DNA of 40,009 nucleotides from an archaeon. GTDB taxonomy: Archaea; Iainarchaeota; Iainarchaeia; Iainarchaeales; 1-14-0-10-31-34. A program made the position numbers. Position 1 is the stretch's first letter. Each line of letters begins with the position of its first letter. The stretch is from positions 1 through 40,009 of the forward strand of contig JBDRIL010000031.1 of assembly GCA_043815885.1 (NCBI GenBank), written 5' to 3'. This document shows, in pieces, positions 1 to 3,000 of the stretch.

Positions 1-3000
1 CCTGGAAAGGGATGGATTGGAATTGATTCAACCTACAGAGAGGCATTGTATGTGGATGGAACGCATTTGGTTTTGGCTTATGTAAAGGATCCATCAGAGG
101 CAGTGGAAAAAGTAATAATGCCTGAAAGAATTAAGGTTGAATTAATAAGGCAAGAGCCAGAAATTGAAATAAATTCTAGAAAAGAATTCAGCGGAATCAC
201 TGGAATTAAAGCAATTATTCCTGAAAAGCTTTCTTCCGGAGAAGCATTTGAATTAGGGATTAAAGCAGAAAATTTAACTGAAAGATACGTGATTCTTCCT
301 GTTTCCCTTCAAATGCATGAAGATTTTTCAGTGGAAGGAGAAAATGAATTACTGGAATTGTTTTCTCCTGGAGAGAAAAAGGAATTTAATTGGAGTGTTA
401 GTGTTCCTTCAGTGAAGGAGGGAAGCAAGGTAACCTATGACTTCTTTGTTAAGACAATTGATGAAACAAGGAAGGAAAAGATTGCTGTAGAGAATGCATT
501 TGAAGAGGAAAGGAAAGTTGTTTCAGAAGAAGAGAAAGAAAAGCCATTAATGGATTTAATTGGAGAGGAAATTGACTTCATTCCTGCCTTGATTTTGCTG
601 GGTTTTGTTGCAGTGGTTTTATTGGTTGTTTTCCTTAAAACAAAAAAGTAATTAAATTCTTTGATTCAAGAGATATTCTTAGGCGGCTATGGTCTATTGG
701 CATGATTCGACCTTGCCAAAAAACTTTTAAAAAAAGTTTTATCAAAAGTCGGCAAAAAAACTTTTAAAAAGATTTTCATGAAATGCAATGAGGTCGCGAA
801 CCGGGTTCGATTCCCGGTAGCCGCATTCAAAAATCATCTGCTGGGTGGAAGGGATTGCAGGATTTTTTCAAGGGCTTCATTGGCAGTTGTTCCTTCTCTG
901 ATAAGCACATAGATTTCATTCCATTTGGCAGGATTGACTTCTTTTGCTGCCCTAAGCAGTCCAAGGATTCTTTCCATTCTGGTTACTTCACTTTTAAACC
1001 ACATCAACCTTTTGGGGTCTTTTTCTGTCCTGAGAGAGTTATTGTGAGAATTTATTTTATTTTTCACGCTAACAGTGTCCATGGAATAATTGGACATTGT
1101 CCAAAATATTCTTGCATTTGAAATCCCTGTTTTCTTTGAAAGTTTGTTTAAGTAATCCCCTGTTCCCTCAGGAAGTTTTTTACTGAATTTTCTGGCCGTC
1201 AAATCAGGTTTTGCTTGAAAGTTTTTTTCAAGCTTAACTGCCTTTTTTTCTTGTATTTTATTAGCTATTTTTGGAACAAAATGAGTTGCTACTGCAGTAG
1301 CTCCAAGAAATAATAGCACCCCCCCAACAACCTTGGCAGTTCCCTTAAAGCTTCTCCACTTTTCTCTCCTCAGTCTACTGCGTATGGAAGGCTTGATATT
1401 TCTCCCCATAAAAAAACCAGTATAAAATTAAGGGATGCACTTAAATTTAATTCTTTCTGTTCCTATTTAAATAGGAAGGGAAACACTGAAAAAGCTTTAT
1501 TTTTTAAAATAGTTAAGCACTTAATTAATAGTTGCTTTCGAGCGGTCTCTTTAAGGGAGGATTGGAATTCTCCTGTGAGGGAGGTATCGGAATGACAAAT
1601 CAGTTATTGCGTTTAAAAACATTATTTTTCATAAACTGATTTGTCACGTAGGTTCTGATGCGTTCGTGGTCTAGTGGTTAGGACATGAGCCTTCCACTGG
1701 TGAAAGTTTGCAAAAAACACTCAATGTTCTAGTGATCTTTTACTAGAGAGATAGCTCATTACCCGGGTTCGAATCCCGGCGAGCGCATTTATTTAATTCG
1801 TTTAATTATTCTTTTTTCTGCATTTGGGATGAGACAGTGGCAGAAGGAATAAGGAATAATATAATGCAGCATTTTAAGAAGAAGTGAAATAACATAATGG
1901 ATAAATTAATTCAATTAATAAAATTGATTATAAAAACAGGGGAAATGAGCTGCCCCAAAATTATTTAAAACCAGAAAAAAATATGTATTAATATGAAAAT
2001 AAACAAAGAACTAGCAGAAGTTACAGGCGTAATTCTTGGTGACGGTTGCCTCTCTGAATATTATGTTAAAAGTGAACAAAGAAGACGACAGGAAATTGCA
2101 TTTACTGGCAGCAACGAAGATTTTTTATATTACAAAGAATTTGTAAGACCTGTTTTCATAAAATTTTTTGGGACGAAAGGCCGACTTTTCATTAGGAAGG
2201 ATGATAACTCTACAAGATTTCATGTTATAAACAAGCCTGTTTTTGAATTTTTCCATAGCATGGGCTTGCCATCAGGGAAAAAACCATCTTATTTAAAGAT
2301 CCCAAATAAAATTATGAAAAAACAATGCTTAAGTTTAGCTTGTGTCAGAGGCATTTGGAATACTGATGGGTCAATTTATCGTCGGTTTACTAAAAGATAT
2401 CCTTCCCAAAAAAAATTTTACGGTAATTATTTGGTTATGCAGTTAAAGATGAATACAAAACCTTTGCTAACACAAGTAAAAAAAATATTAAATGTGGCAG
2501 ACATTGGAACTACTTCAATTACTAAAGAGAATAAAGCATTTGTATTACGAATTACAAAACAAACTAGTATATCTAGGTATCTAACCACAATAGGTTTTTC
2601 CAACAAGCATCATTCCAATAGAATAAAGTCATTCAACATCCCCGCAACAGTTAAATTCTTTTCCTAATACTTTCTTCTTGAGTGGGCCCGTAGCTCAGTC
2701 GGTAGAGGAAAGGAAATTATAGATTTTTATGATACTCCTTTTCGCCGTAAGCACTTGGCTCTTAACCAAGGGGTCGGGGGTTCGATTCCCCTCGGGCTCG
2801 CTTTAAAAGAAGGCAGTTTTGGGTTTGTAGCGGGTTCAAACAACTATTTATATACTTTTTGGTAACTAATATTTATTAGTTAATAACTTTTAGTGATTAA
2901 TATGTTAAAGCAAAAACAGGTGCAGAAGCTTAAGCATTCTCCCACTTTGAATACTGTTTTGATGGTTGAGAATACTTTGAAGGATATAGATGAAAGCATT

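Follow-up and report, generated by a model that had tools for sequence, protein, structure and literature searches.

The window analysed here, a stretch of 40,009 nucleotides from the archaeal genome G000 (contig JBDRIL010000031.1), carries near its left end a free-standing gene for a two-motif (monomeric) LAGLIDADG endonuclease of 224 aa, recognised at 1993..2667 by motifs, Pfam, alignment and a structural model. This gene and the features described around it are on the forward strand. To its left lies tRNA-Gly(UCC) with a canonical 37/38 intron (1660..1787, Rfam) and to its right, with 16 nt between the nuclease stop codon (ending at 2667) and the tRNA start, tRNA-Lys(CUU) (2684..2800, exons 2684-2705 and 2750-2800; Rfam and folding). 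The tRNAs of the window were called by Rfam and ARAGORN with introns allowed. Removal of the 44 nt at 2706..2749 leaves a tRNA-Lys(CUU) of 73 nt, and the precursor folds, in both the MFE and the centroid structure, into a cloverleaf with a bulge-helix-bulge (BHB) of two 3-nt bulges and a 4-bp helix between them. Under the established EndA rule this structure puts the intron, the proposed immunity element, at position 22/23. An earlier note on this DNA had reported a D-loop intron; the intron stands, and its position is the border of D-loop and D-stem rather than the loop. A probable TATA box of the tRNA-Lys gene at 2650..2657 would lie inside the last nuclease codons about 30 nt 5' of the tRNA start, and in relatives the corresponding candidate extends over the nuclease stop codon. 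At the 3' end of the tRNA is a small integrated unit (2791..3560), in which an 18-nt repeat (2791-2808 and 3543-3560) encloses a 95-aa ORF and a 117-aa RelE/ParE-like ORF. This unit is a separate, att-like context outside the homing unit proposed below, and the nuclease gene lies outside its att-like bounds.

The nuclease ORF matches LAGLIDADG_3 at 27.2 bits (cut-off 22.5), LAGLIDADG_1 and LAGLIDADG_2 more weakly, and no intein domain is among its Pfam matches. With its own start, stop and predicted promoter between two complete tRNA genes, it lies outside any intron or intein, as the earlier note had said of this stand-alone gene 16 nt before tRNA-Lys(CUU). It is the sole free-standing LAGLIDADG gene found in G000; the other LAGLIDADG matches of that genome are inside frames of 579-1652 aa, which are probably inteins. 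No longer fused relative was found at E 1e-30 among 7999 scored candidates, a result of little weight. That the nuclease was once housed inside a tRNA intron was also considered and set aside, no family member in the loci census being found within any tRNA intron.

The LAGLIDADG helices span residues 8-18 and 117-126, with terminal acidic residues D17 and D125. In an alignment of 33 members D17, D125, K97 and both motifs are kept, K97 being invariant, and a motif scan of the whole family finds D17/D125-type motifs in every member in which that region is present. The model (pLDDT 94.3) has a two-domain alpha-beta-beta-alpha-beta-beta-alpha fold whose top matches are PI-PfuI, I-Tsp061I and I-DmoI (Foldseek E 1e-10 to 1e-9, TM 0.6-0.7) at 18-21% identity; LAGLIDADG maturases are also among the fold matches. 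These three archaeal monomeric LAGLIDADG enzymes have the fold, the two motifs and the approximate size in common with the nuclease. PI-PfuI and I-Tsp061I are, according to their entry titles, encoded within inteins or rRNA introns, as is I-DmoI, whereas the nuclease described here lies outside its intron. LAGLIDADG genes are contained in archaeal group I rRNA introns, according to the accessible part of PMC6125680. Six of ten nuclease pairs give dN/dS of about 0.11-0.16, the remaining four being saturated in dS, which shows the family to be under purifying selection. Sequence and model look like those of a monomeric meganuclease that is active or was so until recently.

About 58 nt before the start codon is a conserved 14-nt element (1935..1948) that is found before most family members and is presumably regulatory, followed by a TATA-like box, a candidate read from the sequence (1961..1970), which relatives have at equal spacing behind the element. 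Across G000, 9 of 1268 ORFs have an element score of 12 or more in the bin from -55 to -64, against 0-4 in the 22 other bins. Among the nine are a radical SAM-HhH repair-linked protein, HerA, RecJ, two TnpB-like proteins and a PIN protein. The XPD-like helicase gene of G000 scores 11.3 and the nuclease's own element 10.0, the latter having been part of the motif training set. The nuclease may be expressed under a DNA-repair promoter element, and coupling to a repair regulon would suit homing. A derivation of the motif from a decayed half of tRNA-Lys was ruled out, since unrelated repair genes carry the same motif.

Some homolog of the nuclease is present in 124 of 215 genomes of the phylum. 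Within these a tight group of 15 genomes, G000 included, scores above 115 bits with the next score at 84, and with frameshifted copies in G047 and G049 the close family comes to 17 of the 215 genomes, in 8 families. The earlier note had counted homologs in 18 of 196 genomes and none in the family of G000; the count is thus revised, and the absence holds for the 8 other genomes of that family. In one of these, G018, tRNA-Gly(UCC) directly precedes tRNA-Lys(CUU) with no nuclease between, and further empty alleles at the locus in G076, G066, G086 and G104 show a patchy, optional presence. Scans of named genomes (80 of 363 loci kept) and of metagenomes (80 of 501 kept) add members from records titled Woesearchaeota, Micrarchaeota and Nanoarchaeota. 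Family members are found at tRNA-Lys in several DPANN lineages, in agreement with the many families first reported. On an alignment profile the scores of full-length members run from 192 to 319 bits, and those of the next full-length proteins reach at most 153; the membership cut of 155 bits was chosen after the neighbourhoods were known, and four partial ORFs were added by identity. A viral origin was tried and rejected: viral matches are only distant (best E 9e-10), with no close viral homolog found.

The census of partner tRNAs comprises 76 loci after removal of 22 duplicates and the non-member L324. Six of these end too near the ORF, and in two (L301, L304) the ORF is broken and 330 nt of flank hold no tRNA, leaving 68 readable, with the introns of L012, L013, L014 and L200 read by eye. 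The partners are 62 CUU and 6 UUU genes. The nuclease is at the 5' end of the tRNA in tandem in 58, as the earlier note had it generally, and at the 3' end in the other ten (2 in tandem, 8 convergent). An intron lies between tRNA positions 18 and 32 in 65 of the 68 partners, and 66 are split overall. Introns are at differing positions, as had been noted, mostly 22/23 or 30/31-31/32, with a second intron at 37/38 frequent; junction labels hold to within one or two bases (30/31 vs 31/32; 36/37 vs 37/38). The claim that the partner is always split fails at three loci. L309 has no intron, and its ORF is truncated and lacks the first motif. L209, too, is without intron; both its motifs are intact, and no branch in its group is longer. 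L279 has an intron at 37/38 only, beside an ordinary-looking nuclease with both motifs intact and no long branch, and its exon hardly differs from that of the split sister L190. L209 and L279, intact-looking yet without an intron at 18-32, count against simple immunity.

The background is different. In the 198 nuclease-free genomes of the phylum Lys(CUU) was found in 152, of which 121 are without intron (110 called by pattern, 11 by parsing or eye), 24 have an intron at 18-32 and 7 only at 37/38 or later. A second sample was drawn from 141 genomes of the phylum of G215, with 83 loci parsed and 6 dropped as other or unreadable tRNAs. Three of its loci have a family nuclease, two of them split at 31/32 (one being the chosen centre) and the third, in the genome of L209, unsplit. 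Its 74 loci scored as nuclease-free on about 1 kb of flank comprise 44 without intron, 8 with one at 18-32 and 22 with one only further 3', by a pattern that misses long 37/38 introns. Exact stratified tests of the link between intron and nuclease give p 2.5e-4 by family and 7.6e-4 by genus, on hand-entered counts and with kin within strata remaining non-independent. Two internal controls carry more weight than these tests. In genomes with the nuclease at CUU, Lys(UUU) is intron-less in 9 of the 10 where it was found, so the association is not one with genome-wide intron load. Introns only at 37/38 make up 29 of 61 split background genes vs 1 of 66 split partners. Together, the UUU control and the 37/38 bias tie the association to the Lys(CUU) gene and to positions 18-32.

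These specificities bear on the idea that this is intronless homing, or carriage as cargo of a mobile element, in which exon polymorphisms hold the nuclease off and the introns are incidental products of ancestry or of a hot spot for mobile DNA. Neither the bias to 18-32 rather than 37/38, nor the gene specificity, nor the within-genus contrasts are predicted by it, and we consider it quite unlikely. Speaking for it are the exceptions L209 and L279, the att-like unit at the 3' end of the same tRNA-Lys, and the frequency of introns in G000 (21 of 43 ARAGORN calls, nearly all at 37/38 by eye); against it, the nuclease is outside the att-bounded unit. Introns have also been proposed as a defence against integration, by Randau and Soll as cited in the accessible parts of PMC4090602 and PMC3293823. 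The same idea draws on distant LAGLIDADG subfamilies that adjoin tRNA-Gln, -Ser, -Thr and -Ile genes, most of them intron-less, with examples in Patescibacteria too (by eye). Introns are therefore not needed by tRNA-adjacent LAGLIDADG genes in general; either the Lys family is special, or the other subfamilies rely on exon changes.

Nor does intronless homing predict the repeated switching of intron class seen on the nuclease tree. Over its 55 rows there are at least 11 switches of partner intron class (22/23 vs 30/31) and 6 changes of placement, counted on quick trees and without a shuffled-label control. The 19 partners with 22/23 introns are rejected as one clade (p-AU 7e-45, likewise on quick trees). 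The G000 nuclease is closest to that of G173 (63%), whose partner intron is at 29/30, whereas the closest intron to that of G000 is the 22/23 intron of G064 (70% identical), in which no nuclease is found in the 238 nt of flank available. Nuclease and intron of G000 were thus joined from different sources. Nuclease and intron co-vary across 12 loci (Mantel rho 0.51, p 0.004), but in a way that cannot be told apart from host ancestry. Time and again the nuclease has come to stand beside a different intron, which one would expect were any break in the site enough.

Where such a site may lie can be predicted from the tRNA genes themselves. In G000 the intact Lys(UUU) equals the spliced Lys(CUU) over positions 1-26. 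Windows of 22 nt starting at 6-9 of the spliced CUU gene match the genome with 1-2 differences, and those starting at 13-17 find nothing in it closer than 4 differences. A site safe for its own genome would therefore start at about 13-18 and reach 27-34. Immunity would need discrimination at 27-34, given the intact Lys(UUU) that has 1-26 in common and the case of G068, where an intact Lys(UUU) lies only 323 nt away from the nuclease. This counts against the homing reading proposed below, as does the variation of exon positions 27-29 from partner to partner. Overall, the partner exons hardly vary at 18-25 and 30-38 but do so at 26-29. LAGLIDADG enzymes read the central bases of their sites loosely. 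The exon pattern resembles such a site and would fit the prediction, but tRNA structure alone imposes the same conservation.

The loss of the nuclease can be followed in several alleles. Run X1, considered only where its contigs cover the stretch, contains a natural allele in which 1825..2510 (no strand assigned) is missing, the contig joining 1824 to 2511, so that the promoter and the 5' three quarters of the nuclease are gone and the tRNA and its intron are kept; it is thinly attested by one 488-nt contig of depth 4.6 with 192 nt on the shorter side. The remaining stretch has ten differences (of seven listed, four silent and three not), and the remnant tail looks like a diverged allele. This nuclease-minus, intron-plus allele makes the nuclease gene dispensable. 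Run X2 has only 0.07 of the words in common and enters no claim on strain or habitat. In G086, G104 and G105 the introns are those of congeners that bear the nuclease, and 20-25 nt from the very end of the nuclease gene survive, a stretch that, however, overlaps the tRNA promoter. Intron identity between alleles without and with the nuclease is 89% for G086 vs G087 and 88% for G104 vs G100.

Such alleles weigh on the proposal that the protein has been domesticated to aid splicing or expression of tRNA-Lys with non-canonical introns and is kept only where the intron exists. LAGLIDADG proteins acting as maturases or regulators are known, e.g. the I-AniI/bI3 maturases and WhiA. A domesticated protein would account for the same one-way association and for the purifying selection, and the maturases among the fold matches agree with it. 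We nevertheless regard it as very unlikely. The nearly identical introns of G086 and G104 persist without the gene, the X1 deletion keeps the intron, pseudogenes occur, and only the 17 of 215 genomes carry the gene. Moreover, the intron is a textbook EndA substrate, both catalytic acidic residues are conserved, and the remnant tRNA ends described next would be left unexplained.

On the far side of five 5'-placed copies are 5' remnants of tRNA-Lys, in which the first 13-22 nt are duplicated, ending at positions 14-22. L209 carries a second copy of the tRNA 3' end from about position 53. Two further matches are whole Lys(UUU) genes, and one more may be another tRNA. The remnants bracket a break inside the tRNA gene and fit insertion of a nuclease-plus-tRNA cassette at a resected break. 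In G075 the nuclease lies between two Lys genes, both split; its congener G076 has no nuclease and two intron-less Lys genes, the CUU exon being the same as in G075 over 1-37. G107 and G094, of different genera, have sister nucleases (SH-aLRT 96) and introns 88% identical, and four congeners of G107 are intron-less.

Whether the nuclease spreads the intron, or only lives beside it, is the question these traces address. Immunity without spread would have the nuclease settle or persist only beside alleles whose intron was gained otherwise, by intron transposition. Colonisation of this intron-first kind agrees with most of these observations. In its favour, alleles with the intron but no nuclease are common (the 24 of 152 and 8 of 74 above), the nuclease of G000 is nearest G173 with its intron nearest G064, and a tRNA-Arg(CCU) gene in G000 has a non-canonical intron with no nuclease adjoining. 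We think it unlikely, because a homing cut repaired from the donor co-converts the intron by default (as set out in the accessible part of PMC6083498), and because the remnant tRNA ends, the pair G107/G094 and the sister alleles with a nuclease tail fit delivery followed by loss.

The reading that we favour, and hold to be somewhat more probable than all others together, is collaborative homing with BHB tRNA introns, cleavage, site, immunity and co-conversion being inferred. An active homing endonuclease would recognise, in tRNA-Lys(CUU) genes that are not interrupted, a site of about 20-22 bp that begins in the D-loop and takes in the anticodon. Both junctions, 22/23 and 30/31, would have to fall within this site, as probably would position 34, with little dependence on 37/38. 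A short intron spliced by EndA would split the site in the DNA and leave the mature tRNA unchanged, rendering the carrier's own tRNA gene immune. When carrier DNA meets an intron-less allele, the allele would be cut and repaired from the carrier, intron and nuclease being copied together. The nuclease could later decay or be deleted, leaving intron-plus, nuclease-minus alleles; alleles of this kind (X1, G086, G104, G105) and pseudogenes (G047, G049) occur. We know of no route of DNA exchange between these cells. Immunity conferred by the intron, whether or not the nuclease also spreads it, is the part that we consider likely. As to the earlier suggestion that the introns are both immunity against the nuclease and spread by it, the first half is well supported, indirectly, by an association that far exceeds background, survives stratification, is specific to gene and position and recurs with unrelated introns and placements. 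The second half has a circumstantial case (remnants, one nuclease/intron pair across genera, sister alleles with a nuclease tail) and is the less well supported.

Collaborative homing was defined for F-CphI of cyanophage S-PM2 and the psbA group I intron (PMC6083498 and PMC2988022, accessible parts). There, too, a free-standing endonuclease gene adjoins an intron-split conserved gene, the intron is proposed to stop self-cleavage and the nuclease to let the intron invade. The present case differs in having a LAGLIDADG enzyme, archaeal chromosomes, a tRNA gene and a cleavage that is only predicted, as well as BHB introns, which are short and spliced by protein and belong to several unrelated kinds at several positions. 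Its 44-nt BHB intron makes it a variant rather than a plain member of collaborative homing. SegB of phage T4, as described in the accessible part of PMC2988022, is likewise a stand-alone homing nuclease encoded among tRNA genes; in contrast, it is a GIY-YIG enzyme of a phage, shows intronless homing, targets a tRNA intergenic region and has no intron immunity in that account. In tRNA-Thr(GGU) of Caldiarchaeum a 5' tRNA fragment is followed by an inserted ORF and a new full tRNA with an extra, non-canonical 24/25 intron (PMC3293823, accessible part), the layout seen in G087, G088, L194, L201 and L274. Its authors take the ORF as the recombinase of a transposable or plasmid element with site-specific integration, and the word 'homing' does not occur in their text. 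The route of tRNA intron gain is stated as open in the accessible parts of PMC4090602 and 10.64898/2026.10.13.758758. The literature searched, with few subscription papers and no preprint supplements, held no description of free-standing LAGLIDADG genes at archaeal tRNA genes.

A broader proposal, to which we give somewhat less than an even chance, is that free-standing LAGLIDADG homing genes, each specific to a tRNA, form an entire set in DPANN and are switched on by the host's DNA-repair element; within it the Lys family would take up any short BHB intron at 18-32 as its immunity tag and drive it through populations. Homing would then broadly power both the gain of non-canonical archaeal tRNA introns and their maintenance, and many of the introns now found without a nuclease would be relics of nucleases since lost. 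The reading of this locus as collaborative homing would, if true, carry that mechanism beyond phages and ribozyme introns, into cellular chromosomes and introns that proteins splice. It would also imply DNA exchange among DPANN cells, and the nucleases would form a family of compact meganucleases with predictable targets.

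The 3' end of tRNA-Lys(CUU) is repeated as an 18-nt sequence at window 2791-2808 and 3543-3560, and between both copies lie a 95-aa ORF and a RelE/ParE-like ORF. This bounded ORF pair is an integrated toxin-antitoxin unit of minimal make-up. In G018, a genome of the same family, a related ORF pair is found 3' of the same tRNA. At other loci tRNA-Lys(CUU) is often followed directly 3', ahead of tRNA-Phe, by a second LAGLIDADG gene of distant kinship (L006:2408-3313, L007:2409-3059, L035, L036, L067, and L124), which is present also with intron-less Lys(CUU).

Four of the six nuclease copies adjoining tRNA-Lys(UUU) (loci L009, L013, L014, L015, L023, and L498) are damaged: two are frameshifted pseudogenes, one carries an internal deletion, and one a C-terminal frameshift. 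This proportion suggests that UUU is a dead-end site for the nuclease. Among tRNA-Lys genes adjoining a family nuclease, those of L282, L311, L195, L275, and L201 carry up to three introns, including the rare positions 8/9 and 59/60.

Further LAGLIDADG subfamilies, hosted by DPANN and Patescibacteria, terminate at genes for tRNA-Thr, -Ser, -Met/Ile, -Gln, and -Glu or overlap with them (L016-L030, L220-L260, L316-L340); many members have an N-terminal extension, and some ORFs continue into the tRNA sequence. Intron-less tRNA-Gln genes adjoin a distant subfamily (L211, L213, L217, L235, L241, L260, L307, L314, L336, and L337). Compared by eye within these loci, the D-stems of the tRNA-Gln genes vary from locus to locus through paired changes. 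Immunity beside this subfamily is possibly acquired through exon change.

In the left part of the window, tRNA-Gly(GCC) (683-825) contains a 72-nt intron built of two near-repeats. The next gene, a convergent 191-aa ORF (834-1409), was assigned to no known family. Many tRNA and rRNA genes of the source genome have short repeated sequence blocks immediately at the 5' end, in some cases at the 3' end (window 1560-1660; contigs C14, C18, C20, C21, C29, C43, C45, and C62), and several tRNA introns of this genome have A/T-rich hairpin modules in common. Both the blocks and the hairpin modules are possibly miniature mobile elements.

Sequence comparison revealed a partly palindromic promoter element approximately 60 nt 5' of several genes of the source genome, with copies at window 1935-1970 and on contigs C14, C4, C60, C22, C38, C11, C21, C32, and C54 (L486-L497). 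Behind it lie the nuclease, HerA, RecJ, a radical SAM-HhH protein, an XPD-like helicase, two TnpB-like genes, and a PIN gene. The element may resemble origin-recognition boxes. The genes that it precedes represent a candidate DNA-repair regulon in Iainarchaeota.
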